64,000 nt of DNA, taken from the NCBI RefSeq assembly GCF_003019035.1, contig NZ_CP027447.1. One strand, given 5' to 3'. Numbering within the stretch: the first letter of the stretch is position 1; each line of letters begins with the position of its first letter. The translations under genes were made by a program, and so were the position numbers. The stretch is from Escherichia coli (GTDB taxonomy: Bacteria; Pseudomonadota; Gammaproteobacteria; Enterobacterales; Enterobacteriaceae). The notes under the pieces are model-generated. The model was given only the letters and a program-made list of their open reading frames with translations, had not been told where the DNA came from and did no database searches. Of the stretch, positions 3,101-59,352 are shown piece by piece.

Positions 3101-4453
3101 GTGTTTATTGGTTTTGATTACGGTACAGCAAACTGTTCAGTGGCGGTCATGCGTGACGGTAAACCGCATTTGCTAAAAATGGAAAACGACAGCACGCTGC
3201 TGCCTTCAATGCTTTGCGCGCCAACGCGTGAAGCGGTAAGCGAATGGCTGTACCGCCATCATGATGTTCCGGCAGACGACAATGAAACGCAGGCGCTGTT
3301 ACGTCGGGCGATTCGTTATAACCGCGAAGAAGATATCGATGTCACGGCGAAAAGCGTGCAGTTCGGTCTTTCTTCACTGGCACAATACATTGATGATCCG
3401 GAAGAAGTGTGGTTTGTGAAATCACCAAAATCGTTCCTCGGTGCCAGCGGCTTAAAACCGCAGCAGGTAGCGCTGTTTGAGGATCTGGTCTGCGCAATGA
3501 TGCTGCACATTCGCCAACAGGCGCAGGCGCAGCTGCCGGATGCGATTACTCAGGCGGTGATTGGTCGTCCGATCAACTTCCAGGGGCTGGGTGGCGATGA
3601 AGCAAACACCCAGGCGCAAGGGATTCTGGAACGCGCGGCAAAGCGTGCCGGGTTTAAGGACGTGGTATTCCAGTACGAGCCGGTCGCGGCTGGGCTGGAT
3701 TACGAAGCCACCTTGCAGGAAGAAAAACGGGTGCTGGTGGTGGATATCGGCGGTGGTACGACTGACTGCTCATTGCTGCTGATGGGGCCGCAGTGGCGTT
3801 CGCGTCTCGATCGTGAAGCCAGCCTGCTGGGTCATAGTGGTTGCCGTATTGGTGGTAACGATCTGGATATCGCGCTGGCGTTTAAAAACCTGATGCCGTT
3901 ACTGGGCATGGGGGGCGAAACCGAAAAAGGCATCGCCCTGCCGATTCTGCCGTGGTGGAATGCGGTTGCCATCAACGACGTACCTGCGCAAAGTGATTTC
4001 TACAGTAGTGCCAACGGTCGTCTGCTTAACGATCTGGTACGCGATGCCCGCGAACCGGAAAAAGTGGCCCTGTTACAGAAAGTCTGGCGTCAGCGTTTAA
4101 GCTATCGCCTGGTACGTAGCGCAGAAGAGAGCAAAATTGCGCTTTCAAGCGTAGCAGAAACCCGCGCCTCACTGCCGTTTATCAGCGATGAACTGGCTAC
4201 GCTGATTAGCCAGCAAGGGCTGGAAAGCGCCCTCAACCAGCCACTGGCGCGGATTCTGGAACAGGTGCAACTGGCGCTGGATAACGCCCAGGAAAAACCG
4301 GATGTCATCTATCTGACTGGTGGTAGCGCCCGATCGCCGCTGATTAAAAAAGCGCTGGCAGAACAGTTGCCGGGCATTCCGATTGCAGGCGGCGATGACT
4401 TTGGCTCCGTCACCGCCGGGCTGGCACGCTGGGCGGAAGTGGTGTTTCGTTAA
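3101..4453 (+). CDS. yegD: Hsp70/actin-like ATPase family protein YegD
   Basis: GTG start at 3101 gives MFIGFDYGTANCSVAV, a DnaK-like N-terminal phosphate-1 motif (IGFDYGT), and a 450-aa product. The ORF track has an in-frame upstream extension. Confidence 0.88.
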   Translation: MFIGFDYGTANCSVAVMRDGKPHLLKMENDSTLLPSMLCAPTREAVSEWLYRHHDVPADDNETQALLRRAIRYNREEDIDVTAKSVQFGLSSLAQYIDDPEEVWFVKSPKSFLGASGLKPQQVALFEDLVCAMMLHIRQQAQAQLPDAITQAVIGRPINFQGLGGDEANTQAQGILERAAKRAGFKDVVFQYEPVAAGLDYEATLQEEKRVLVVDIGGGTTDCSLLLMGPQWRSRLDREASLLGHSGCRIGGNDLDIALAFKNLMPLLGMGGETEKGIALPILPWWNAVAINDVPAQSDFYSSANGRLLNDLVRDAREPEKVALLQKVWRQRLSYRLVRSAEESKIALSSVAETRASLPFISDELATLISQQGLESALNQPLARILEQVQLALDNAQEKPDVIYLTGGSARSPLIKKALAEQLPGIPIAGGDDFGSVTAGLARWAEVVFR

Positions 4454-4465
4454 TTGAAAAATGGC

Positions 4466-6412
4466 TCAGCAGCGGCTTAAATCAGCCTGCGCCTGAGCCA
4501 GTTTTTCTGCCGCCTGACGTAGCGGCTCCATCAACGGCATGGTCCGTGCTGGAGCATGAAGGCGGAATCGCTGCAACTCTGTCGCACCGACAGTCAACGC
4601 CGATTCCAGCCGATGTCGTTTGGCGGCCATTTTAGTCAGTACCGCTTGTCTGTCTGCTGGCGTTACCGCTTCATTCGGCCTGAACACAAAACGGCGTTCG
4701 CAACTCGCTTTCCAGTCGATAACCGCCTGTGTCAGATGATCACCAAACCCTTTCACTTGCTTAACGCCACGACGGGTAACATCTGCGGCGGTTTCAATAC
4801 CAAAAGACCGTAACGCCGCTTTACGCGCTGGGCCTACGCCGGGAATAGAGGCAGCATCGATAAAAAATCCCTCCAGAAACTTCTGCTTCTGCCGTTCCCT
4901 TGCGTTGTCCTGAAGTGCTGCCAGAGCGCGTTTCTCCTCTTCCGGTAACCCAAGAATTTCGTCCTTCATTTTTTCGAGCATCGTCCGTTTGGCTATAAAA
5001 CCTTCCTGCCCGCCCAACTGTTGGATCTGGCTGACTAAATGGTCATAGTCCATTTTCGCGCGATTAAACGCCTCACGGCGTTGCTGGATTTCTGCTTTGT
5101 ACGCTTTGCTTGTCAGGCTGCCAATAATCCAGATAGCCGACAGCACAGGAACCAAAATAATATAACGTGGTTCTGTCTGAAGGCCGCAAAGCAACAGCGA
5201 TAACGCTGACAGTGCGATCTCAATCAGAATGATGTATTCACGCCGTAACAGGCCTAAAGGAAGCGGCCTGCCAGTCGGTTGGAAATGATCGGGTAATGGC
5301 AGTTGCAATGCTGGCGGTGCTACTGACGCCATCACCATCGCCCAGACTTTCGCCAGCACAAAATCACCGCTGGTGGTAATGACCTCTTCGCCGAGATCAA
5401 TAAAATAGATAACGCCTTGATTATCCAGAGCACACCACGGGCAGTCAGCCAAATGACCGGGATAAACATGCATTGCCGAAACGGTACATTTCTTTAACTG
5501 TTGGCGTAGTAAATCAAGTGCCGCTACCCACGCTTTTGCCGTCGGACGCCCGGTTGCCACGCCACTTTCCGTGAATGCCTGCTGAAACATGGCTTCAACA
5601 TCGCCCGGTAACATCGACAGCGGAATAGATCGTGGCGGCGGTTTTAAACCACGTCGCTGATTATCTGACGCGTAGGCATAACGGAAATGGGCAATATCCG
5701 TCTCCAGTGCATTACCCGCATCAGAGACAAGCGGTACACCGGAATAAGGATGCCGCCCACCAAACAAGACGTGAAAAATCAGCAACGCAAGGCCAAAATT
5801 ATCGTGATTCGCGGTGCGTTCAAAGCCAACAAATGACGACAAGGTTTGCAGCTCTGGCGACGTAAAATGCGACACGCCCACTTCGCATAAATGCAGCGTT
5901 CCATTGGCGTTAATCTGAAAGGAGTCGCTATCAATCAACACCACTTTGCTGTCACGGCCTACCATAAAGCTGTTCTGGTTTACGTCACCCACGACGTGCC
6001 CGTGCTCGTGAACCGTAGCAAAAGATGAAGCAATATTGCGCGCAACATAGAGGAGAAAATCCCACGCACAATGAGGGTAACTCTGACGACGATGTGCCGG
6101 GCTATAGATCATATGAATCGGTTCTTTACCTGAAACCTTCGGCATCATAAAACCGATAACCTTTCCGCCTCGTCCACCGTGAAGCGTTGCCTGCGGCCAG
6201 GCGACATAATTCAACAACTGCGCGTCAGCTGTCGCAGCCATAAAGGCAAGTTTGTCCTGTTTTAAGGCGGGTGGCGGCGTGTGATAAATCTTGGCGACGC
6301 TATCGGCAAACTCCTCGATATCATAAACCGCACCTTCACCGCCTTTGCCCAGTTCACGGCCGAGAGTGGTCAATTCACCTGTCGATGTAAATACTTTTAT
6401 ATTTGTCTTCAT
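4466..6412 (-). CDS. yegI: Atypical Ser/Thr protein kinase-like protein YegI
   Basis: 648-aa ORF. N-terminus has a kinase-like Gly-rich loop (GKGGEGAVYDI), a catalytic-loop-like HGHVVGDVNQNSF and LIDSDS. The middle is hydrophobic and predicted membrane-spanning; the C-terminal domain follows. Confidence 0.85.
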   Translation of the reverse strand: MKTNIKVFTSTGELTTLGRELGKGGEGAVYDIEEFADSVAKIYHTPPPALKQDKLAFMAATADAQLLNYVAWPQATLHGGRGGKVIGFMMPKVSGKEPIHMIYSPAHRRQSYPHCAWDFLLYVARNIASSFATVHEHGHVVGDVNQNSFMVGRDSKVVLIDSDSFQINANGTLHLCEVGVSHFTSPELQTLSSFVGFERTANHDNFGLALLIFHVLFGGRHPYSGVPLVSDAGNALETDIAHFRYAYASDNQRRGLKPPPRSIPLSMLPGDVEAMFQQAFTESGVATGRPTAKAWVAALDLLRQQLKKCTVSAMHVYPGHLADCPWCALDNQGVIYFIDLGEEVITTSGDFVLAKVWAMVMASVAPPALQLPLPDHFQPTGRPLPLGLLRREYIILIEIALSALSLLLCGLQTEPRYIILVPVLSAIWIIGSLTSKAYKAEIQQRREAFNRAKMDYDHLVSQIQQLGGQEGFIAKRTMLEKMKDEILGLPEEEKRALAALQDNARERQKQKFLEGFFIDAASIPGVGPARKAALRSFGIETAADVTRRGVKQVKGFGDHLTQAVIDWKASCERRFVFRPNEAVTPADRQAVLTKMAAKRHRLESALTVGATELQRFRLHAPARTMPLMEPLRQAAEKLAQAQADLSRC

Positions 6413-6612
6413 AATGTTTCAAGGGCAGTCATATTATATTTCAATGAATAATAACACTTCCCATTATAATTATTTCTATATTGGAAGAGTCCAACTCAAG
6501 AATAAAAATGATAATGCAATTTCATCAGGATACAATTCAATTCCAACCTGATAATGATTCACTTCCACAGGTTTTTTGCTAACTTTTACTACACAGGGAT
6601 TCTGGAGAAAAA

Positions 6613-7074
6613 ATGAAAAAGATATTACTTATGTTGAGTCTGCTATTTTTTACTACCGCAAGCTATTGTGAGATTTCGGATACGTTAGTGACAGGAGGTT
6701 ATGATAAAAAGGCGATGTCTGACGCGATTAAACATGCGCGGAAAGAAACCGATCAATTCATCGAAGTTATGAATAAAAAAGATGCTGATACTTTCGCGGT
6801 CAAAGCCCCGATAACCGATCGCGGAGAAACCGAGCATTTCTGGCTCACGGATGTCACTTATTCTAACGGCATGTTTATTGGTATAATAAGCAATGACCCT
6901 GGTATTGTTACAAACGTAGAATATGGCCAGGAGTGGAAAATCAAGAAAGAAGATATTTCAGACTGGATGTATACGCGCGGGGATAAAATTTACGGTGGTT
7001 ATACCATTGATCCTTTATTGGTCACCTATCCAAAAGAAGAAGCCGACGAGCTAAGAGCAAAATTAGTTCGCTAG
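6613..7074 (+). CDS. yegJ: Secreted protein of unknown function YegJ
   Basis: 153-aa ORF with an N-terminal signal peptide (MKKILLMLSLLFFTTASYC). The gene and flanking spacers are visibly AT-rich; an AGGAG-like RBS lies upstream. Confidence 0.8.
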   Translation: MKKILLMLSLLFFTTASYCEISDTLVTGGYDKKAMSDAIKHARKETDQFIEVMNKKDADTFAVKAPITDRGETEHFWLTDVTYSNGMFIGIISNDPGIVTNVEYGQEWKIKKEDISDWMYTRGDKIYGGYTIDPLLVTYPKEEADELRAKLVR

Positions 7075-7101
7075 CCAGCCATTATATTGATTGCTTAAAC
7101 T

Positions 7102-7129
7102 GGCGGTTGAACCGTTGTATTCAACCGCC
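7102..7129. terminator. Bidirectional hairpin terminator between convergent yegJ and pphC
   Basis: Perfect 10-bp inverted repeat GGCGGTTGAA / TTCAACCGCC with an 8-nt loop, seen directly. Confidence 0.6.
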
Positions 7130-7138
7130 ATGCGATGT

Positions 7139-7900
7139 TCATTCTGTCCACATAGCCAGTGCTAACGTTTTATCATCATCGGTACGCTCGTTTACCGCTG
7201 GGCTGGACAAAAACTGCTTTAACAATTCAGGTAATAAATCGAGTTGTTCCTGCGTTGCTGACGCCAGTCCATTGAAAAACGGGGTAAAGAAAGGCACATG
7301 CGGAGAATTATCCAGCATATTTAACGCCAGTCTCTGAATACCATCCGTAAATGCTGCAACTCTATGCGCACGCTCAGTGCTGGTGAAAGTTTCCAGTCTG
7401 AAAACGGCATCTTCATCGGTAATGAAATGCGTCATGTTGGCATATTCACCCACCATCGGCGTGAGAGGCAATTGCAGACCGTGACCCAAATCTACCACCA
7501 CGCCGCCATCGCCAATCTGCATAATCAAGGTGCCGTCAGGCGATGAAATCAGTCCCAGAAATGTGCAGGCAAAATCGCGAACCGCTAATTCTTTGGCTTC
7601 CGCCTCGGCAAAAAGTCGCTGACGAACGGTCAGCACAATATCCGTTGCGAGGACATCATTAAGCCCCAATTCCCCGCCCTGCACTTTTTGCATCATATAA
7701 GCCATCGCTTCATTGACGGCAAGCGTCGCACCTTCGCCACCCTGCGAAACGCTGCCTGCGCCATCAGCGACAAATACCGTCAATAATGGCTGCTGGTCTT
7801 CTAGCCAGGCAACCTGCATCTGGCAGGCATCCTGGCAAGGCAAGTCCGCGCTGATGTGCGACGTTCCAACGGTTGATGCATAGACCAGACGCCAGCTCAC
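7139..7900 (-). CDS. pphC: PP2C-family Ser/Thr protein phosphatase PphC (YegK)
   Basis: 253-aa ORF. Start overlaps the yegL stop by 4 nt, indicating translational coupling. PP2C-like Asp/Gly-rich motifs ([16 protein letters not shown]). Confidence 0.85.
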
Positions 7901-8556
7901 ACTGACGTCCAGCCTTTTGGCGCTTCCAGCACAACTTCCGTTCCCGGCGTGGAGCGGGAAACCGAACGCAGCGAACTGGATAACCAGCTAAATAGTTCGC
8001 GGAATTGTAATCCTTGAAGAGGCAAAGGCTGACGAACGCTGATTTGGGCCAGCGTCTTCATATCCGCCCCCTGAACACCGATGGAAAAGAAGGCAAACTT
8101 CTTATCTTCTTCCCCCTGAAACACCTTGTTGGCAGCAGCCTGCCACTCATCGGTTGGTGCGCCATCGGTAATCAGGAAAATCCACGGACGATAATAGGAA
8201 ATACCATTGGCGCGATACTCACGTTTGCGCTCCTCAACCATATTCAGGGCTTTGGTAATGGCGGCGCCCATTGGTGTATCCCCATGGGCAAACAGGATGG
8301 GCGGGAAAAAATTAGCGGCGCTGGTAAAGGGTTGTTCCACATGCACTGGGCCGAACGTCACAATACCGAGTTCCACTCTTTTTAAGGCCAGCGGGTCGGC
8401 AAGCAGCTCATCGCGAAAGGTAACCAATCCGGCGTTAAGTTCATTAATGGGTCTACCGTTCATAGAACCAGAAACATCCAGCAGCAAAATGCAGGGGCAA
8501 CGTGGTTCCGGGTTACTGGCAAAATCGCTGGTGGCAAACGTGATTTGTTCGCTCAT
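7897..8556 (-). CDS. yegL: von Willebrand factor A domain protein YegL
   Basis: 219-aa ORF with a MIDAS DxSxS motif ([11 protein letters not shown]) and a downstream ITDGAPTD motif typical of vWA domains. Confidence 0.85.
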
Positions 8557-8737
8557 AAGAAATCCTTTCTTAGAGAATTATTGAGGTCCGGTATCATACC
8601 GATTGCAATAATGAAATAAGAGCAAACGAAGAAACTTTCAGAATTAGGCCCGGCGGCGCAGAAAATTTTGCTATTCGCCTCGCAAGAACGGAGAGCCGTC
8701 GATTGACACTAAGGGCGGAGTGACATAATTTCAGGAG

Positions 8738-8886
8738 TGAGGGTTAGGGAGAGGTTTCCCCCTCCCCCTGGTGTTCTTAGTAAGCCTGGAAGCTAATCAC
8801 TAAGAGTATCACCAGTATGATGACGTGCTTCATCATAACCCTTTCCTTATTAAAAGCCCTCTTCTCCGGGAGAGGGTTTCCCGTTT
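8738..8886 (+). ncRNA. sibA: Sib antitoxin sRNA, unit 1 (SibA-like); ends approximate
   Basis: Sigma70-like promoter TTGACA(8703-8708)-N17-TAATTT(8726-8731); the transcript is fully antisense to ibs unit 1; hairpin at about 8856-8877 followed by TTTCCCGTTT. Confidence 0.65.
8777..8836 (-). CDS. ibsA: Ibs type I toxin, 19 aa (MMKHVIILVILLVISFQAY)
   Basis: Hand translation of the minus strand; it is a hydrophobic peptide that matches my memory of IbsA. Confidence 0.8.
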   Translation of the reverse strand: MMKHVIILVILLVISFQAY

Positions 8887-9072
8887 CAGCGTCCCGCTGA
8901 AATCGTCGGCTTACCTCCTTTCGCCCTGAATGCAGTCTATCGCTAACGCGTGAACAAAATAGTTTCCTCTGTGATTATTCCGTAACGACTCGCAAAGAAT
9001 ATTTGCTGGCAGGATCGCAGACTACAAAGCCTGCGGATTGACAATCTTATCGTGAAGGCATAATTTCAGGAG

Positions 9073-9216
9073 TGAGGGTAGAGCGGGGTTTCCCCCGCCC
9101 TGGTAGTCTTAGTAAGCGGGGAAGCTTATGACTAAGAGCACCACGATGATGAGTATCTTCATCATGACCCTTTCCTTATTTATGGCCCCTTCCTCGGGAG
9201 GGGCTTTCCCGTTTCA
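9073..9216 (+). ncRNA. sibB: Sib antitoxin sRNA, unit 2 (SibB-like); ends approximate
   Basis: Promoter TTGACA-N17-TAATTT(9061-9066), antisense to ibs unit 2, GC hairpin at about 9184-9204 plus T-rich tail. Confidence 0.65.
9109..9165 (-). CDS. ibsB: Ibs type I toxin, 18 aa (MMKILIIVVLLVISFPAY)
   Basis: Hand translation of the minus strand; IbsB-like. Confidence 0.75.
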   Translation of the reverse strand: MMKILIIVVLLVISFPAY

Positions 9217-9400
9217 GCGTCCCGCTGAAATCGTCGGCTTACCTCCTTCTGTCCTGTATGCAGTCTATCGCTGACTTGCGGATAAAATAGTTTCCAATGT
9301 GATTATTGCGTAACGTCTCGCAAAGAATATTTGCTGGCAGGATCGCAGACTGCAAAGCCTGCAGATTGACAATATTATCGTGAAGGCATACTTTCAGGAG

Positions 9401-9543
9401 TGAGGGTAGAGCGGGGTTTCCCCCGCCCTGGTAGTCTTAGTAAGCCGGGAAGCTTATGACTAAGAGCACCACGATGATGATCCACTTCATCATGACCCTT
9501 TCCTTATTTAAGGCCCCTTCCTCGGGAGGGGCTTTCCCGTTTC
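9401..9543 (+). ncRNA. Sib antitoxin sRNA, unit 3 (additional copy); ends approximate
   Basis: Promoter TTGACA-N17-TACTTT(9389-9394), antisense to ibs unit 3, GC hairpin at about 9512-9532 plus T-rich tail. Confidence 0.6.
9437..9493 (-). CDS. Ibs type I toxin, 18 aa (MMKWIIIVVLLVISFPAY), third copy
   Basis: Hand translation of the minus strand; IbsB-like variant with W at position 4. Confidence 0.7.
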   Translation of the reverse strand: MMKWIIIVVLLVISFPAY

Positions 9544-14141: not shown

Positions 14142-17100
14142 GTGAAGTTTTTTGCCCTCTTCATTTACCGCCCGGTGGCGACGATTTTACTGTCGGTCGC
14201 CATTACCCTGTGCGGCATACTGGGTTTCCGTATGCTGCCAGTCGCCCCGCTGCCACAGGTCGATTTTCCGGTGATCATGGTCAGCGCCTCGCTGCCCGGT
14301 GCGTCACCAGAAACAATGGCGTCTTCCGTTGCCACGCCGCTGGAGCGCTCACTTGGGCGCATTGCCGGAGTCAGCGAAATGACCTCCAGCAGTTCGCTCG
14401 GCAGCACGCGCATTATTTTGCAGTTTGATTTTGACCGGGATATCAACGGCGCAGCGCGCGATGTGCAGGCGGCGATCAACGCCGCGCAAAGTCTGCTACC
14501 CAGCGGGATGCCCAGCCGTCCGACCTATCGCAAAGCGAACCCGTCGGATGCGCCAATTATGATCCTGACGCTAACCTCCGATACTTATTCGCAAGGTGAA
14601 CTGTACGATTTCGCCTCAACACAGCTGGCTCCGACGATTTCGCAAATCGACGGTGTCGGTGATGTCGATGTTGGCGGCAGCTCGCTGCCCGCCGTACGCG
14701 TCGGGCTGAATCCGCAGGCGCTGTTTAATCAGGGCGTCTCGCTGGACGACGTACGCACTGCCATCAGCAATGCCAACGTGCGTAAACCGCAGGGCGCGCT
14801 GGAAGATGGCACTCACCGCTGGCAGATCCAGACCAACGATGAACTGAAAACAGCCGCTGAATATCAGCCGTTGATTATTCATTACAACAACGGCGGCGCG
14901 GTTCGTCTGGGCGATGTGGCGACGGTGACCGACTCAGTACAGGATGTGCGCAACGCCGGGATGACCAACGCCAAACCGGCTATTTTGCTGATGATCCGCA
15001 AGCTGCCGGAAGCCAATATTATCCAGACGGTTGACAGCATCCGCGCCCGTCTGCCGGAATTACAATCCACCATCCCGGCAGCAATTGATCTGCAAATTGC
15101 CCAGGATCGCTCCCCTACTATCCGCGCGTCGCTGGAAGAGGTTGAGCAGACGCTGATTATCTCGGTGGCGCTGGTGATTCTGGTGGTGTTTTTATTCCTG
15201 CGCTCGGGTCGCGCCACTATTATTCCCGCCGTTGCGGTGCCGGTTTCGCTGATTGGTACGTTTGCGGCGATGTACCTGTGCGGATTCAGTCTCAATAACC
15301 TTTCGTTAATGGCACTCACCATCGCTACTGGTTTCGTGGTGGATGACGCCATCGTGGTGCTGGAAAACATTGCCCGTCACCTGGAAGCGGGGATGAAACC
15401 ACTACAGGCCGCACTGCAAGGTACTCGCGAAGTCGGTTTTACGGTGCTGTCGATGAGTCTGTCACTGGTGGCGGTGTTCCTGCCGCTGCTGTTGATGGGC
15501 GGATTGCCGGGTCGCCTGTTACGCGAGTTTGCCGTGACGCTTTCTGTCGCCATTGGTATTTCGTTGCTGGTTTCCCTGACGTTAACGCCGATGATGTGCG
15601 GCTGGATGCTGAAAGCCAGCAAGCCGCGCGAGCAAAAGCGACTGCGTGGTTTTGGTCGCATGTTGGTAGCCCTGCAACAAGGCTATGGCAAGTCGCTGAA
15701 ATGGGTGCTCAATCATACCCGTCTGGTGGGCGTGGTGCTGCTTGGCACCATTGCGCTGAATATCTGGCTGTATATCTCGATCCCGAAAACCTTCTTCCCG
15801 GAGCAGGACACCGGCGTGTTGATGGGCGGGATACAGGCGGATCAGAGTATTTCGTTTCAGGCGATGCGCAGTAAGTTGCAGGATTTTATGAAAATTATCC
15901 GTGACGATCCGGCGGTGGATAATGTCACCGGCTTTACCGGCGGTTCGCGGGTGAACAGTGGGATGATGTTTATCACCCTCAAGCCACGCGACGAACGCAG
16001 CGAAACGGCGCAGCAAATTATCGACCGTCTGCGCGTAAAACTGGCGAAAGAACCGGGGGCGAATCTGTTCCTGATGGCGGTACAGGATATTCGCGTTGGC
16101 GGACGTCAGGCTAACGCCAGCTACCAGTACACATTATTGTCCGACGATCTGGCGGCACTGCGCGAATGGGAGCCGAAAATCCGCAAAAAACTGGCGACGT
16201 TGCCGGAACTGGCGGACGTGAACTCCGATCAGCAGGATAACGGCGCGGAAATGAATCTGGTTTACGACCGCGACACCATGGCACGGCTGGGAATCGACGT
16301 GCAGGCCGCCAACAGCCTGTTAAATAACGCCTTCGGTCAGCGGCAAATCTCGACCATTTACCAGCCGATGAACCAGTATAAAGTGGTGATGGAAGTGGAT
16401 CCGCGCTATACCCAGGACATCAGTGCGCTGGAAAAAATGTTCGTTATCAATAACGAAGGAAAAGCGATCCCGCTGTCGTATTTCGCTAAATGGCAACCGG
16501 CGAATGCCCCACTATCGGTGAATCATCAGGGATTATCGGCGGCCTCGACCATCTCGTTCAACCTGCCGACCGGGAAATCGCTCTCGGACGCCAGTGCGGC
16601 GATCGATCGCGCAATGACCCAGCTTGGTGTGCCTTCGACGGTGCGCGGTAGTTTTGCCGGCACGGCGCAGGTGTTCCAGGAGACGATGAACTCGCAGGTG
16701 ATCCTGATTATCGCCGCCATCGCCACGGTGTATATCGTGCTGGGTATCCTTTACGAGAGTTACGTACATCCGCTGACGATTCTCTCCACCCTGCCCTCGG
16801 CGGGCGTTGGAGCGCTGTTGGCGCTGGAGCTGTTCAATGCCCCGTTCAGCCTAATCGCCCTGATAGGGATCATGCTATTAATCGGCATCGTGAAGAAAAA
16901 CGCCATTATGATGGTCGATTTTGCGCTCGAAGCCCAACGGCACGGTAACCTGACGCCGCAGGAAGCTATTTTCCAGGCCTGTCTGCTGCGTTTTCGCCCG
17001 ATTATGATGACTACCCTGGCGGCGCTGTTTGGCGCGCTGCCGCTGGTGTTGTCGGGCGGTGACGGCTCGGAGCTGCGGCAACCCCTGGGGATCACCATTG

Positions 17101-17219
17101 TCGGCGGTCTGGTAATGAGCCAGCTTCTGACGCTGTATACCACGCCGGTGGTGTATCTCTTTTTCGACCGTCTGCGGCTGCGTTTTTCGCGTAAACCTAA
17201 ACAAACGGTAACCGAGTAA
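14142..17219 (+). CDS. mdtC: RND multidrug efflux transporter MdtC
   Basis: 1025-aa ORF with GTG start directly after the mdtB stop; paralogous to MdtB. Confidence 0.93.
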
Positions 17220-20933: not shown

Positions 20934-21266
20934 ATGGCTGGTTGGTTTGAACTCAGTAAGAGCAGTGATAATCAGTTCCGGTTTGTGCTAAAAGCGGGCA
21001 ATGGTGAGACTATCCTCACCAGCGAGCTGTATACCTCAAAAGCCTCTGCGGAAAAGGGCATCGCGTCGGTACGTAGCAACAGCCCGCAAGAAGAACGCTA
21101 TGAGAAAAAAACGGCAAGCAACGGCAAATTCTATTTCAATCTGAAAGCCGCCAATCATCAAATTATCGGCTCCAGCCAGATGTACGCCACCGCGCAATCT
21201 CGTGAAACCGGAATTGCCTCCGTTAAAGCCAATGGCACAAGCCAGACGGTAAAAGACAATACGTAA
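20934..21266 (+). CDS. yegP: YegP, tandem DUF1508-type protein
   Basis: ATG at 20934 is preceded by AAGGAG at 20924-20929; 110-aa product MAGWFELSK... with an internally duplicated motif (FRFVLKAGNGE / FYFNLKAANHQ). Confidence 0.88.
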   Translation: MAGWFELSKSSDNQFRFVLKAGNGETILTSELYTSKASAEKGIASVRSNSPQEERYEKKTASNGKFYFNLKAANHQIIGSSQMYATAQSRETGIASVKANGTSQTVKDNT

Positions 21267-21519
21267 TTACGATGCCGGGCGTGGGTTGTTGGCGTCCGGC
21301 TTTATATCAAAACAACTCTTAGTTATTGATAATTAAGATTAACCTCCGCCATTAAAATAGTGGGCACTGACGAGCACTCGTTGTGCTTTCTTTGTTTACC
21401 ATCCCATACTTATCTTCCTGAACATGTTCATATGCCAAAATATCTTCTAATACTTTCGTGACGCTATCCGGTTTATGAAATACACTGATGTAAGATTTTT
21501 ACTTACAGGCGGGTGTAAA

Positions 21520-21771
21520 ATGGCCAGAACGATGACGGTTGATCTCGGCGATGAGTTGCGTGAATTTATCGAGTCCTTAATTGAATCCGGCGACTATCGC
21601 ACCCAAAGCGAAGTGATCCGTGAGTCGCTGCGCTTACTTCGAGAAAAGCAAGCAGAGTCTCGCCTGCAAGCGTTACGTGACATGCTCGCTGAAGGGTTGA
21701 GTAGTGGTGAAGCTCAGCCGTGGGAAAAGGACGCGTTTTTACGGAAGGTGAAAGCAGGGATAAGGAAATAA
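21520..21771 (+). CDS. ParD-family (RHH) type II antitoxin
   Basis: 83 aa from the ATG at 21520 (MARTMTVDLGDELREFIESLIESGDYRTQSEVIRESLRLL), a typical ParD N-terminus. An alternative start exists at 21475. Stop lies 1 nt before the partner gene start. Confidence 0.75.
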   Translation: MARTMTVDLGDELREFIESLIESGDYRTQSEVIRESLRLLREKQAESRLQALRDMLAEGLSSGEAQPWEKDAFLRKVKAGIRK

Positions 21772-21772
21772 T

Positions 21773-22069
21773 GTGCGTACTATAAAACTCATGCCAAAAG
21801 CCAATGAGGATTTAGAAGGCATCTGGTATTACAGCTATCACCATTTCGGCGAACCACAAGCCGACAGATATGTGGAACATCTTTCAGACGTTCTCCAGAT
21901 TCTGAGTAACAATAATATAGGTACGCCCAGACCTGAATTAGGCGAAGGTATTTTTGTTCTTCCTTTTGAACGCCACGTAATTTATTTCCTGCAATCACCA
22001 GAGGAAATTATCGTCATTCGTATCCTTAACCAAAACCAGTACGCCTCCAGACATTTACACTGGAGCTAA
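21773..22069 (+). CDS. ParE/RelE-fold type II toxin
   Basis: 98 aa from the GTG at 21773 (alternative ATG at 21791). The N-terminus (KANEDLEGIWYYSYHHFGEPQADRY) and C-terminus (HVIYFLQSPEEIIVIRILNQNQ) follow the ParE pattern. Confidence 0.75.
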   Translation: MRTIKLMPKANEDLEGIWYYSYHHFGEPQADRYVEHLSDVLQILSNNNIGTPRPELGEGIFVLPFERHVIYFLQSPEEIIVIRILNQNQYASRHLHWS

Positions 22070-22171
22070 ACCCGCCGATTGCGCTACAATGCCCGCCCTT
22101 AAAGTGGGGGCACTCCCCTAACCGCTTCATCAGGTGAAGCGGATCTGACCTGTCATCAGAACGAGAGAATT

Positions 22172-23533
22172 ATGTTTAAACCGGAACTCCTTTCCCCGGC
22201 GGGAACGCTGAAAAATATGCGTTACGCTTTCGCTTATGGCGCAGATGCTGTTTATGCGGGCCAGCCGCGTTACTCCCTGCGTGTGCGCAACAACGAATTC
22301 AACCACGAAAATCTCCAGCTCGGCATCAATGAAGCCCACGCGCTGGGGAAAAAGTTTTATGTCGTGGTCAACATTGCACCGCACAACGCCAAGCTGAAAA
22401 CCTTTATCCGTGACCTGAAACCGGTGGTGGAGATGGGGCCGGATGCGCTGATTATGTCCGATCCAGGGCTGATTATGCTGGTGCGCGAGCACTTCCCTGA
22501 AATGCCGATCCACCTCTCGGTGCAGGCTAACGCCGTGAACTGGGCGACGGTGAAATTCTGGCAGCAAATGGGACTGACCCGCGTGATCCTCTCTCGCGAG
22601 CTGTCGCTGGAAGAGATTGAAGAGATCCGTAATCAGGTGCCGGGTATGGAGATCGAGATCTTCGTTCACGGTGCGCTGTGCATGGCCTACTCCGGTCGCT
22701 GCCTGCTCTCTGGCTATATCAACAAGCGCGACCCGAACCAGGGCACCTGCACCAACGCCTGCCGCTGGGAGTACAACGTCCAGGAAGGGAAAGAAGATGA
22801 CGTTGGCAACATCGTGCACAAGTACGAGCCGATTCCGGTGCAAAATGTTGAGCCGACGCTGGGCATCGGCGCGCCAACCGACAAAGTGTTTATGATCGAA
22901 GAAGCTCAGCGTCCGGGCGAGTATATGACTGCGTTTGAAGATGAGCACGGCACTTACATCATGAACTCGAAAGATCTGCGCGCTATCGCCCACGTTGAAC
23001 GCCTGACCAAAATGGGCGTGCATTCGCTGAAAATCGAAGGTCGTACAAAATCTTTCTACTATTGCGCACGCACCGCGCAGGTTTACCGTAAAGCTATCGA
23101 TGACGCAGCTGCGGGAAAACCATTCGATACCAGCCTGCTGGAAACTCTGGAAGGTCTGGCGCATCGTGGCTATACCGAAGGTTTCCTGCGTCGTCATACT
23201 CACGACGATTATCAGAACTACGAATACGGTTATTCAGTTTCTGACCGCCAGCAGTTTGTTGGTGAGTTTACCGGTGAGCGCAAGGGCGACCTCGCGGCGG
23301 TAGCGGTGAAAAATAAATTCTCCGTTGGCGACAGCCTTGAGCTGATGACGCCGCAAGGGAACATTAACTTTACCCTTGAGCATATGGAAAACGCCAAAGG
23401 TGAAGCTATGCCGGTCGCACCAGGCGATGGTTATACTGTGTGGATCCCGGTGCCGCAGGATCTTGAGCTAAATTACGCGCTGCTGATGCGTAATTTCTCC
23501 GGGGAAACCACGCGTAACCCCCACGGTAAGTGA
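22172..23533 (+). CDS. yegQ: U32-family peptidase-like protein YegQ (TrhP)
   Basis: 453-aa ORF starting MFKPELLSPAGTLKNMRYAFAYGADAVYAG; U32 family by remembered homology. Confidence 0.9.
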   Translation: MFKPELLSPAGTLKNMRYAFAYGADAVYAGQPRYSLRVRNNEFNHENLQLGINEAHALGKKFYVVVNIAPHNAKLKTFIRDLKPVVEMGPDALIMSDPGLIMLVREHFPEMPIHLSVQANAVNWATVKFWQQMGLTRVILSRELSLEEIEEIRNQVPGMEIEIFVHGALCMAYSGRCLLSGYINKRDPNQGTCTNACRWEYNVQEGKEDDVGNIVHKYEPIPVQNVEPTLGIGAPTDKVFMIEEAQRPGEYMTAFEDEHGTYIMNSKDLRAIAHVERLTKMGVHSLKIEGRTKSFYYCARTAQVYRKAIDDAAAGKPFDTSLLETLEGLAHRGYTEGFLRRHTHDDYQNYEYGYSVSDRQQFVGEFTGERKGDLAAVAVKNKFSVGDSLELMTPQGNINFTLEHMENAKGEAMPVAPGDGYTVWIPVPQDLELNYALLMRNFSGETTRNPHGK

Positions 23534-23617
23534 TTCATTTCGATTATTTTTCCCGGATGGAAAATTCTTAGAAACCGATCACATACAGCTGCATTTATTA
23601 AGGTTATCATCCGTTTC

Positions 23618-23704
23618 GCTGAAAAACATAACCCATAAAATGCTAGCTGTACCAGGAACCACCTCCTTAGCCTGTGTAATCTCCCTTACACGGGCTTATT
23701 TTTT
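23618..23704 (+). ncRNA. cyaR: CyaR (RyeE) Hfq-dependent sRNA
   Basis: Sequence GCTGAAAAACATAACCCATAAAATGCTAGCTGTACCAGGAACCACCTCCTTAGCCTGTGTAATCTCCCTTACACGGGCTTATTTTTT matches CyaR as I remember it, including the terminator hairpin and U-tail. Confidence 0.85.
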
Positions 23705-23861
23705 ATACATAAGCCGTATCCTGGTAACCGTCTTCCATTGACCACATCGATAGAATCTCCCCTCATAGCACGATGCCTTTCACTTATTGGCATCGTGCTC
23801 GCACAGGTTCCGGTTACGCACAGCCAGAACGCGCATGTTTGACGCTTACCAAAAAATATTC

Positions 23862-24179
23862 TCACTCTCCACATTTGAATGTCAGACGAGCGACGCCATG
23901 TAATCCTGCACCTTCTGTCTTCAGGTCAACTATCTGCATTTTTTTTCCCTGAGTAACACAGAAATGAACTGCATCATTTTTTACTATATTTTCTGCACCA
24001 GATATTCTACCCCTGGCTAAAGAAGCTTCGGCTTCGGTGTAGTATTGGTTATCGAGTTTACGCTGGATATTACTTTTATAGGCAAGACCGAATTTACCGA
24101 TACTTGTCTCATCATTATGCACAGCACAACCAGACATAAGAAAAACACTAATTAATGATATAGCAGCTATCTTTTTCAT
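23862..24179 (-). CDS. yegR: Putative lipoprotein YegR
   Basis: 105 aa from the internal ATG (MKKIAAISLISVFLMSGCAV), with a signal peptide and lipobox-like MSGC. The ORF track extends to 24239. Confidence 0.8.
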   Translation of the reverse strand: MKKIAAISLISVFLMSGCAVHNDETSIGKFGLAYKSNIQRKLDNQYYTEAEASLARGRISGAENIVKNDAVHFCVTQGKKMQIVDLKTEGAGLHGVARLTFKCGE

Positions 24180-24593
24180 CTTACCTTCCCCCATTAAATA
24201 CCAACGACACGCTCTGGTGTTTAAATATAATAATGGCATGATTATTATATTTGAATAGGATTATAATAAATGTTCTGTACAACATTTCCTACATAAGTAG
24301 GAATTACATACACGGATGCCCTTCCGGGTAACCCCATGGGGGGGTTAATATATTTTTAATAGTATATTGAAGATGCCACTGTTTAGTTGAATATTAGGTA
24401 TATGCTCTTTTTTGAAATTTATCGGTGGCTGCCGTTAGTATTCGCTGTCCCCATTGCAAGCTCCTGGTGGTAACCACTGAATCTTCCATACTTGAACTGA
24501 CTTTTTATCCTCCGACTTTCATCCTGTTCTGACTCTACCTTTTCTTTTCTGCTCTACACTATCTACAGACCAATCATAAAGGCACATACGATC

Positions 24594-59268: not shown

Positions 59269-59352
59269 GTTGGAACACGATGTTGCACAGGCCGTGGTGT
59301 TAGGCCTGAAAGTAGTAAATAAAAGAACCTGCCTCACCAGCAGGTTTTTTTA
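59269..59352 (+). ncRNA. Putative ~80-nt trans-acting antitoxin-like sRNA
   Basis: Predicted 5' end GTTGGAACACGATGTTGCAC; internal stem-loop CAGGCC-N9-GGCCTG at 59288-59308; AU-rich linker; terminator ACCTGC-ctcacca-GCAGGT plus a run of 7 T (59327-59352). Confidence 0.5.

Follow-up and report, generated by a model that had tools for sequence, protein, structure and literature searches.

Between yegP and yegQ/trhP, the window (the whole 64,000-nucleotide stretch of Escherichia coli DNA analysed here) probably harbors an intact chromosomal type II toxin–antitoxin operon, encoding a PF03693 ParD and a PF05016 ParE, that would function as an autorepressed gyrase-poison module and would derive from an old insertion in the yegQ/trhP promoter. 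The cassette is an uncharacterised chromosomal member of the well-known ParDE family. Over 1800 complete E. coli genomes already have ParDE named by automatic annotation, and searching the literature with gene names and RefSeq accessions turned up no paper on the parDE locus. The unusual feature of this otherwise ordinary ParDE module is its position on the yegQ/trhP promoter.

The spacer between yegP, which ends at 21266, and yegQ, which starts at 22172, spans positions 21267-22171. As recognised in the first-pass annotation of the window, it contains two small open reading frames:

21520-21771, plus strand: parD, encoding an 83-aa ribbon-helix-helix antitoxin (PF03693, TIGR02606), with ATG at 21520 and TAA at 21769-21771.
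21773-22069, plus strand: parE, encoding a 98-aa ParE-class toxin (PF05016), with a GTG start at 21773 and TAA at 22067-22069.

A single nucleotide (21772) separates the parD stop codon from the parE start. The antitoxin gene comes first and the toxin gene lies directly downstream, which is the order of type II toxin–antitoxin operons, and the two genes are translationally coupled. RefSeq/PGAP places the parD start at 21475 (98 aa), probably 15 codons too far upstream: the E. whittamii, Citrobacter, Pseudocitrobacter, and plasmid orthologues all begin with MARTM.

Profile searches bore out the earlier assignment of the pair to the ParD/ParE class, with matches well beyond what chance would give. 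The parD product, whose N-terminus reads MARTMTVDLGDELREFIESL, matched the Pfam family ParD_antitoxin (PF03693, 4.7e-19) and scored 88.4 bits against NCBIfam TIGR02606, the cutoff of which is 46.2. Residues 6-42 match RHH_1 of Pfam, at the sequence level only. The best PDB match was PrpA (7YCS_D, 1.9e-27; 61% identity over 77 aa), and ParD can be aligned over its full length with PrpA, VcParD2, and CcParD1, all of which were solved in toxin complexes. ParD is predicted to consist of an N-terminal ribbon-helix-helix DNA-binding domain and a C-terminal toxin-binding region. Its family differs from those of the antitoxins of RK2 ParDE and ParDE-I (YacAB; IncI/IncF), two plasmid addiction modules that likewise employ ParE-superfamily toxins. 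RK2 ParD belongs to PF09386 (PMC7848731) and ParD-I to COG3905, with a 93-aa toxin (PMC6614396), a separation based on family descriptions. PF09386, the antitoxin family that marks an RK2-type ParDE, was not among the five Pfam domains listed for ParD at an independent E ≤ 10, and only PF03693 was found at E ≤ 0.001. ParE-I induces the SOS response and filamentation and raises antibiotic tolerance (PMC6614396).

ParE matched ParE_toxin (PF05016, 2.9e-13) over residues 4-89 of 98, and no NCBIfam model matched it. The AlphaFold model (pLDDT 92) comprises a strand at residues 3-6, helices at 8-25 and 27-46, and three further strands, so that β1, the long α1–α2 hairpin, and the C-terminal antiparallel sheet of the ParE fold are all present. 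When the PDB was searched with this model using Foldseek, the top 23 matches were exclusively ParE-class toxins (TM 0.65-0.87), the best solved ones reaching 0.83-0.87, and RelE, YoeB, and YafQ ranked below them with TM values of 0.5-0.66. ParE and RelE have superfamily and fold in common, and the literature on PrpT, the closest characterised homologue, establishes no target for it: no gyrase assay is reported, and the word gyrase is absent from both papers (PMC7848731, PMC9731233). ParE could on these grounds be taken for a RelE-like, ribosome-dependent mRNA endonuclease instead of a gyrase poison. We consider this highly improbable, since the only PDB sequence matches at E ≤ 1 were the ParE toxins PrpT, CcParE1, VcParE2, and Mtb ParE1, the 23 best structural matches (TM up to 0.87) stand above every RelE-type toxin, and the model displays the ParE-specific long α-hairpin. 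The closest relatives are thus not RelE, YoeB, YafQ, or HigB, as would be expected for a RelE-type mRNA interferase.

From homology only, we infer that ParE is toxic and poisons DNA gyrase, because VcParE2, CcParE1, and Mtb ParE1 are among its closest structural matches and because toxicity residues are shared. In work on the family, these three toxins are described as gyrase poisons (see bioRxiv 10.1101/2025.07.24.666505). Caulobacter crescentus ParDE1 (3KXE), Vibrio cholerae ParDE2 (7R5A), and M. tuberculosis ParDE1 (8C24) are, like the cassette, chromosomal ParD(RHH)/ParE pairs; their toxins superimpose with TM values of 0.83-0.85, and H68 and R83 are conserved in the cassette ParE, but the sequence identity is only 26-30%. 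In VcParE2, five toxicity residues have been named, with Trp25 as the key residue and Trp25Phe lowering toxicity (bioRxiv 10.1101/2025.07.24.666505). Three of the five have identical or conservative counterparts in ParE (Y20 for F20, Y33, and H68); the position of the key Trp25 is occupied by F25, and His88 is not conserved.

Upstream of parD, an alignment of nine homologous regions from chromosomes and plasmids revealed the following elements:

21458-21463, plus strand: GTGACG, putative -35 hexamer for parDE transcription, located 17 nt before the conserved -10.
21481-21486, plus strand: TACACT, putative -10 hexamer for parDE transcription, with the TAyAmT columns kept in all nine regions.
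21490-21506, plus strand: palindrome GTAAGATTTTTACTTAC (GTAAG-N7-CTTAC), a candidate ParD operator that overlaps the expected transcription start.

The proposed promoter is based on cross-species conservation and not on a consensus scan. Most of the nine regions have GTGACG, TGGACG, or ATGACG at the -35 position. Each of the two hexamers is weak (4 of 6), and a strict sigma-70 consensus scan found no plus-strand promoter in the spacer, the parDE -35 included. Both arms of the palindrome are invariant in the nine chromosomal and plasmid homologues, whereas the mean column identity is only 63%, and the palindrome has a single match in the 64-kb window, with 0.01 expected by chance. The conserved promoter together with the invariant palindrome at 21490-21506 looks like a candidate ParD operator. 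By analogy with the family, a ParD dimer would bind GTAAG-N7-CTTAC via its N-terminal ribbon-helix-helix domain and repress the operon, and the C-terminal half of ParD would wrap around ParE and neutralise it. Once ParD is broken down or in the minority, unbound ParE would poison DNA gyrase and thereby damage DNA, induce the SOS response, and halt growth.

The solved system closest to both proteins is PrpT/PrpA of the Pseudoalteromonas rubra plasmid pMBL6842 (PDB 7YCS, 7YCU-7YCW), which also pairs a ParE toxin (about 33% identity, TM 0.87) with a PF03693 antitoxin. PrpA is a ribbon-helix-helix repressor of its own promoter (PMC7848731, PMC9731233); it also binds origin iterons and limits plasmid copy number (PMC7848731). 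In contrast to the plasmid-borne PrpTA, the cassette is chromosomal and has no origin nearby, and its GTAAG-N7-CTTAC palindrome differs from the TTTG(T/A)AAT motif of PrpA. With this location, and with a palindrome that is not repeated in the window, the cassette lacks the hallmarks of a PrpT/PrpA-type copy-number controller, namely a plasmid setting and an iteron-binding antitoxin.

The nearest non-chromosomal relatives are annotated, uncharacterised ParD/ParE pairs located next to RepFIB on IncFIB/IncFII plasmids from Salmonella, Klebsiella, and E. coli; about 880 plasmids carry parDE homologues adjoining RepFIB repB. The plasmid and chromosomal modules are about 70% identical at the nucleotide level, and ParD is 92% identical, with residues 1-52 the same, while ParE is 65% identical. 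The -10 hexamer, the operator palindrome, the GTG start of parE, and the 98-aa length of ParE are common to both. The plasmid ParD differs in having 88 aa and a gene that overlaps parE by 14 nt, compared to 83 aa and a 1-nt gap on the chromosome. Beyond the promoter on one side and the stop codon of parE on the other, the two are no longer homologous. One copy on an E. coli IncF plasmid is degraded.

Chromosomal ccd homologues have been proposed as anti-addiction modules against the ccd system of the F plasmid. Like the cassette, they are chromosomal homologues of a plasmid addiction system and encode an antitoxin that could counteract the toxin made by the plasmid, although the protein family is unrelated to ParDE. 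The cassette might likewise be domesticated, with a weak or inert toxin and a ParD retained for cross-regulating and cross-neutralising the IncFIB plasmid ParDE. ParD would then protect the host from plasmid addiction or change plasmid behaviour. The much closer match of ParD than of ParE to the IncFIB proteins, the shared palindrome, the abundance of RepFIB-side homologues, the degraded IncF copy, and the iteron binding and copy-number control by the homologous PrpA (PMC7848731) are consistent with this idea. We nevertheless regard it as rather unlikely, since purifying selection (dN/dS 0.08-0.17) acts on an intact parE and the full cassette is kept in nearly all carriers (1843 of 1845). The near-identity of ParD and the operator with those of RepFIB-side modules on widespread virulence and resistance plasmids makes cross-talk plausible and testable.

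A survey of 5426 complete E. coli genomes detected the cassette in 1845 (34%), in line with the expectation that it is accessory in E. coli. Every copy is chromosomal, single, and located at the yegP–yegQ site, with none on plasmids. About 60% of the genomes have an empty site, and about 6% carry a different four-gene island, an allele that retains the last ~20 nt of parE. The cassette is full length in 1843 of the 1845 carriers, and an identical 60-nt parE 3' end is present in 1598 of 1841 carriers. Shortened parE alleles (88 aa and 85 aa) occur in draft E. coli and Shigella genomes, and a Q89-stop allele is found in draft genomes and Shigella and in none of the 5426 complete genomes. Escherichia sp. 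E1V33 retains only ParE residues 56-98. Strain HS-01, considered as a partial-deletion allele, was rejected, as its assembly is garbled and homopolymer-rich over parDE.

Other type II toxin–antitoxin systems act in abortive-infection phage defence, and the site upstream of yegQ acts like a variable hotspot at which other cargo can be found. A main role of this kind, in which ParE is freed when a phage shuts off host transcription, would also fit the location of a Yersinia homologue, which adjoins phage lysis genes. It appears very unlikely to us, given that no PADLOC defence-system model matched ParD or ParE, that the PHROG matches were generic, and that no defence genes lie nearby. PADLOC likewise matched none of the four proteins of the four-gene island.

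The boundaries of the cassette were defined by pairwise alignment to HB101 and MG1655:

21274-21304, plus strand: intrinsic terminator hairpin of yegP, GCCGGGCG...CGTCCGGC, plus TTTA, at the left-hand end of the K-12-shared sequence.
21301-22080, plus strand: segment of 780 nt in place of the 21 nt GCTTTACCAGAGCCCCCCACA of K-12, a net gain of 759 bp.
21301-21455, no strand: Escherichia-only non-coding stretch that separates the yegP terminator from the parD promoter, conserved in E. whittamii.

The MG1655 spacer is short (146 bp) and contains no parDE, as the first-pass annotation had stated for K-12. Its size estimate for the insertion, about 0.65 kb, was too low with respect to the net difference of 759 bp. 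Empty-type genomes have 941-943 bp over the stretch that takes up 1701 bp in the parDE-bearing window. On the left, the K-12 alignment stops at 21300-21304, where the 4-nt TTTA is at the same time the U-tract of the yegP terminator; this hairpin folds with -18 kcal/mol (z = -2.6) and was also found by the terminator scan. On the right, the junction coincides with the region of the parE stop codon. The alignment to the K-12 spacer, which had been suggested for locating both boundaries and a target-site duplication, thus yielded the former and no duplication, leaving only TTTA.

Homology to Pseudocitrobacter begins only at 21456, and the first ~62 nt of the Escherichia-only stretch are also kept in the four-gene-island allele (BLAST to L006: 21200-21362, 94.5%). 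A minus-strand open stretch at 21352-21495 that resembles a protein C-terminus was rejected as non-coding, since indels of 1-2 nt break the frame in E. whittamii and L018; the 28-aa minus-strand open reading frame at 21352-21438 likewise loses its frame in both. Rfam searches at gathering and permissive thresholds returned nothing real in the spacer, the one match to 6A RNA (E = 0.48) being well under the gathering score. In agreement with the earlier statement that mobile-element genes are lacking, no transposase or integrase reading frame was found in the segment or flanking the cassette. Short repeats at the junctions were at chance level only, with no terminal repeats and no target-site duplication. 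The segment accordingly shows none of the features of a transposon, an IS, or an integrative element, i.e., transposase or integrase, terminal inverted repeats, and target-site duplication.

The right-hand junction was examined further in an alignment of the yegQ upstream region comprising 12 alleles from six genera:

22062-22067, plus strand: GGAGCT, within the final parE codons, at the position of the yegQ -35 TTTACY in parDE-less alleles.
22085-22090, plus strand: TACAAT, candidate -10 of the yegQ/trhP promoter, in columns that are invariant across the 12 alleles.
22091-22171, plus strand: conserved leader of yegQ/trhP that contains three hairpins (22106-22118, 22122-22142, and 22144-22160).

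All six alleles without parDE, which come from five genera (Klebsiella, Enterobacter, C. amalonaticus, Salmonella, and K-12-type E. coli), have TTTAC[C/T]-N17-TACAAT before yegQ, whereas all six parDE-derived alleles have GGAGC[T/C] at the -35 position. Because the parDE-less alleles keep this promoter and the parDE alleles have the end of parE in its place, the cassette appears to have inserted into the yegQ promoter long ago, and the K-12 spacer to retain the ancestral arrangement. The earlier reading of the cassette as the inserted state is thereby upheld.

At first, we had favoured the opposite polarity, in which the cassette is ancestral and the short K-12 spacer is a scar left by deletion between TTTA microhomologies. 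This reading drew on the synteny, the E1V33 remnant, and the parE tail in the four-gene allele. parDE precedes yegQ in three genera with a divergence at least equal to that of the flanks, and remnant and overwritten alleles show that losses do occur. Moreover, the K-12 21-mer aligns with the right end of the E1V33 remnant with a score reached by 86 of 5000 shuffles (better than 98%). The same 21-mer is, however, not significantly similar to the right end of the window's own segment (1540 of 5000 shuffles). The deletion was rejected as the main explanation, and is in our judgement unlikely, because the K-12 spacer has exactly the ancestral TTTACC-N17-TACAAT promoter of Klebsiella, Enterobacter, C. 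amalonaticus, and Salmonella, an architecture that would not arise anew by deletion.

The cassette is not strain-specific, as had been supposed, and not recent: E. whittamii, a Citrobacter, and Pseudocitrobacter have parDE before yegQ at the same junction, and the synonymous sites of the cassette are saturated between genera. Both genes are under purifying selection, with dN/dS values of about 0.02-0.03 for parD and 0.08-0.17 for parE. Between E. coli and E. whittamii, the cassette dS of 0.2 is below the flank dS of 0.46-0.53, which indicates that horizontal exchange has been part of its history. According to the insertion model, a module of roughly 0.6 kb, from the promoter to the parE stop, would have inserted long ago and replaced the yegQ/trhP -35 hexamer. 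The occupied allele and the empty one, ancestral in this model, both segregate in E. coli, and the occupied one is at times degraded or overwritten.

The leader downstream of the junction is supported by RNAalifold, which predicted 19 pairs from eight taxa, five of them with compensatory changes; Rfam contained no match to it. A terminator scan found no intrinsic terminator on the plus strand between parE and yegQ (22070-22171). With the -35 element replaced and no terminator after parE, trhP may depend partly on read-through from parDE. That trhP is partly transcribed in this way from a ParD-repressed promoter, and that chromosome and IncFIB plasmids regulate each other, is a tentative proposal to which we assign a low probability.

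The presence or absence of parDE at a single site provides a natural polymorphism suited to isogenic tests of chromosomal toxin–antitoxin function. As the insertion took away the -35 element of trhP, regulation of this gene may differ between strains. If the read-through proposal is true, trhP, a tRNA wobble-uridine hydroxylase gene, would be tied to the state of a toxin–antitoxin switch in the parDE-carrying third of E. coli.

The window matches strain SCU-301 over 1701 nt at 100% identity and belongs to the E. coli chromosome, with the gene order mdtABCD-baeS-baeR-yegP-spacer-yegQ (trhP, a tRNA hydroxylase gene). The spacer spans exactly 21267-22171 and contains two ORFs, with a single nucleotide between the parD stop and the parE start, as the first-pass annotation had read:

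Open reading frames in the yegP-yegQ spacer
21520-21771, parD, ATG to TAA, 83 aa, N-terminus MARTMTVDLGDELREFIESL
21773-22069, parE, GTG to TAA, 98 aa

Both proteins are already named in RefSeq (WP_001329834.1 and WP_001259172.1). RefSeq/PGAP places the parD start at 21475 (98 aa, MKYTDVRFLLTGGCK...), and the added stretch, 21475-21519, takes in the promoter and operator candidates of the locus. The MARTM start (21520 here), found in every parD orthologue examined, argues for the 83-aa protein, and 21520 is more likely to be the true start.

The first-pass annotation had proposed a ParD/ParE toxin-antitoxin pair, and both profile matches and fold search agree. ParD matches ParD_antitoxin in Pfam (PF03693, 4.7e-19) and TIGR02606 in NCBIfam (88.4 bits, cutoff 46.2). 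Among solved structures, the closest is Pseudoalteromonas rubra PrpA (7YCS_D, 1.9e-27; 61% identity over 77 aa), followed by V. cholerae ParD2, Caulobacter ParD1, and M. tuberculosis ParD1. ParE matches ParE_toxin (PF05016, 2.9e-13), and its matches among PDB sequences (E ≤ 1) were ParE toxins only, namely PrpT, CcParE1, VcParE2, Mtb ParE1, and a Mesorhizobium ParE. An AlphaFold2 model predicted from 16 homologues (pLDDT 92) has the ParE topology of β1, a long α-hairpin, and a three-stranded sheet. In a Foldseek search of the PDB with this model, the best 23 matches were all ParE-class toxins (TM 0.83-0.87 for the top five), and RelE, YoeB, and YafQ ranked lower (TM 0.5-0.66). Thus, assignment of the toxin to the ParE rather than the RelE class is well supported. 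Toxicity is predicted for ParE, as is gyrase as its target. At the positions reported to be important for VcParE2 toxicity (bioRxiv 10.1101/2025.07.24.666505), Y20, Y33, and H68 are present, while Phe occupies the position of the key Trp25 and Asn that of His88, which is also named there. The papers on PrpT, the closest homologue of ParE, contain no gyrase experiment (PMC7848731, PMC9731233), and we found no published literature on this parDE locus.

Having passed sequence and fold tests, the locus would work like a ParD (PF03693)/ParE type II toxin-antitoxin system, with activity predicted. The closest system is PrpT/PrpA, in which the plasmid and origin context defines the copy-number role of PrpA, whereas parDE here lacks such a context. 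It is not of the RK2 type, whose antitoxin belongs to another family, and it is probably different from ParDE-I/YacAB, which is set apart by its description (COG3905 antitoxin, 93-aa toxin; PMC6614396). The parDE finding holds up and its identification was correct; it is an ordinary case, a so far uncharacterised member of a known family.

Other features were recorded elsewhere in the window:

Antitoxin RNAs matched by Rfam
8703-8851, 9038-9180, and 9366-9508, three tandem Sib RNAs (RF00113, 141-150 bits) in the mdtA-yegL interval, each with an annotated Ibs toxin
59276-59351, plus strand, OrzO-P RNA (RF02083, 98.9 bits) in the yehL-yehK spacer

K-12 presumably has two Sib RNAs between mdtA and yegL (sibA and sibB). 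The OrzO-P match implies a zorO-orzO type I toxin-antitoxin locus, which carries no annotation in the matching RefSeq record. At 23616-24239, the CyaR sRNA (23616-23701) is directly followed by yegR; the window lacks the remnant of cryptic prophage PR-X (ogrK, yegZ) that separates cyaR from yegR in K-12. mdtC (14142-17219), a frameshifted pseudogene according to the SCU-301 annotation, is an uninterrupted 1025-aa ORF in the window.

The 96 nt upstream of parD were aligned across nine homologues (E. coli, E. whittamii, Pseudocitrobacter, Citrobacter, three IncF/IncFIB plasmids, Yersinia mollaretii, and one unassigned contig), with a mean column identity of 63%:

Candidate control elements upstream of parD
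21458-21463, -35-like hexamer GTGACG, 17 nt upstream of the -10 block
21481-21486, -10-like block TAyAmT (TACACT here), which stands out in the alignment
21490-21506, palindrome GTAAG-N7-CTTAC, 3 or 4 nt after the -10 block, both arms invariant in the nine homologues

The 64-kb window contains a single match to the palindrome, compared with 0.01 expected by chance. A strict consensus promoter scan did not report the two hexamers, both of which are weak. We infer that they form the parDE promoter and that the palindrome is a candidate operator for ParD (RHH), overlapping the transcription start.

The cassette alone (21369-22050) was searched against 5426 complete E. coli genomes. It was present in 1845, always chromosomal, in one copy each, and at full length in 1843. 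Of the carriers, 188 have the window's own allele (at least 99% identity), from which the common allele differs by ~2%. The 60-nt 3′ end of parE is identical in 1598 of 1841 carriers, and a Q89-stop parE allele was found in draft E. coli and Shigella dysenteriae genomes and in none of the 5426 complete E. coli genomes. In K-12 MG1655 and HB101, the spacer measures 146 bp and lacks parDE; compared with K-12, the window has 780 nt (21301-22080) in place of 21 nt. The alignment to MG1655 thus confirmed the claim of a short K-12 spacer without ParDE, but the cassette is not strain-specific, as had been thought, given the 1845 carriers and its presence in other genera. Nor is it core, since K-12 lacks it; within E. 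coli it is an accessory cassette, though an old and widespread one.

A third spacer allele, found in 305 of the 5426 genomes including Nissle 1917 and UTI89, carries a four-gene island of 5.1 kb, encoding a hypothetical protein, DUF4034, DUF1266, and a PcfJ-domain protein:

Four-gene island
3919-8634 of the E. coli 401656 locus (L006), opposite strand, at the site of window 21363-22050

This allele still has ~62 nt from the start of the left flank and the final ~20 nt of parE, and therefore overwrote a parDE allele. PADLOC gave no match for the four island proteins. In Salmonella (L020), DUF1266-DUF4034 lies directly 5′ of yegQ, in reversed orientation relative to the E. coli island. In the 'complete' genome of E. 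coli HS-01 (NZ_CP172817.1; L016 1640-2170), the flanks are normal and the parDE coding region is garbled, homopolymer-rich, and devoid of ORFs, which suggests an error of assembly or polishing rather than biology.

E. whittamii has the order baeR-yegP-parDE-yegQ (ParE 92-93% identical), and Pseudocitrobacter and Citrobacter (youngae/werkmanii type) have baeR-parDE-yegQ without yegP (ParE 79% and 73% identical, respectively). In Escherichia sp. E1V33 (L005 1445-1600), only ParE residues 56-98 remain (81% identity), encoded by a 3′ portion of parE that directly follows the left flank; parD is lost, as is the parE stop codon. This allele is an independent degradation of the cassette in an E. whittamii relative. 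In comparisons between genera, both parD and parE are saturated at synonymous sites, with third-position differences of 47-57%, against 42-50% for baeR and 32-38% for yegQ in the flanks; dN/dS is 0.02-0.03 for parD and 0.08-0.17 for parE.

Synteny, remnants, and divergence first suggested an ancestral cassette that was deleted in K-12. Comparison of the yegQ upstream region with parDE-free taxa, namely Salmonella and three taxa with baeR directly 5′ of yegQ (K. pneumoniae, C. amalonaticus, and E. hormaechei), in a 12-sequence alignment spoke against this. All six parDE-free alleles, K-12 included, have TTTAC[C/T], 17 nt, and TACAAT, followed at once by a highly conserved leader, so the K-12 spacer represents the ancestral yegQ promoter. 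In all six parDE-derived alleles, the -35 position is taken by the end of parE (TGG AGC TAA), which reads GGAGC[T/C] there, and the 17-nt spacer has a different ending, GATTGCGC. Judged by this alignment, the cassette was inserted and took the place of the yegQ -35 hexamer, which supports the inserted state proposed at first, and its junction with yegQ, common to three genera, would be of single origin. No transposase, integrase, inverted repeats, or target duplication accompanies it; the ORFs and the RefSeq annotation bear out the noted absence of mobile-element genes, and the target-site duplication suggested as a check was looked for and not found. Between E. coli and E. whittamii, dS is ~0.2 in the cassette and higher in the flanks (0.46-0.53), which suggests that the occupied allele moved between lineages by recombination.

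Homologues with ~70% nucleotide identity are carried by ~880 plasmids of Escherichia, Klebsiella, Enterobacter, and Salmonella, most of them conjugative and of IncF type; in those plasmids whose gene context was inspected, the toxin-antitoxin pair adjoins a RepFIB initiator gene and a tyrosine recombinase. Homology to the chromosomal copy extends from near 21471, inside the promoter, to the parE stop codon. Plasmid and chromosomal ParD are 92% identical, with no differences in residues 1-52, whereas identity drops to only 65% for ParE. In the plasmid clade, ParD is 88 aa long and its gene shares 14 nt with the start of parE, in contrast to the 83-aa ParD, stop, 1 nt, and GTG of the chromosomal clade. 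This asymmetry and the candidate operator that both clades share make cross-regulation and cross-neutralisation between chromosome and plasmid plausible. The 8-mer ATTGCGCT lies 9 nt past the parE stop in the window (22078-22085) and 11 nt past it in a Salmonella IncFIB plasmid (L011 3608-3615); it may be left over from the sequence that originally followed the cassette, which would place the chromosomal join inside GCGCT, or it may be a coincidence. More distant homologues occupy other sites, between alr and tyrB in Pluralibacter gergoviae (L004 4001-4290), with no intact ORF of at least 70 aa listed, and next to phage holin and lysozyme genes in Yersinia mollaretii (L010 3248-3791).

The 5′ leader of yegQ/trhP (22091-22171) is almost invariant across six genera and folds into three hairpins (22106-22118, 22122-22142, and 22144-22160), with five base pairs showing compensatory changes. 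No Rfam family matches this leader, which may act in cis to regulate the tRNA hydroxylase gene and would then be an undescribed element. A terminator scan from the parE stop (22069) to the yegQ start (22172) found no site. With no terminator after parE and the native -35 gone, we hypothesize that in parDE-positive strains part of the trhP transcription may come from read-through that starts at the ParD-controlled promoter.
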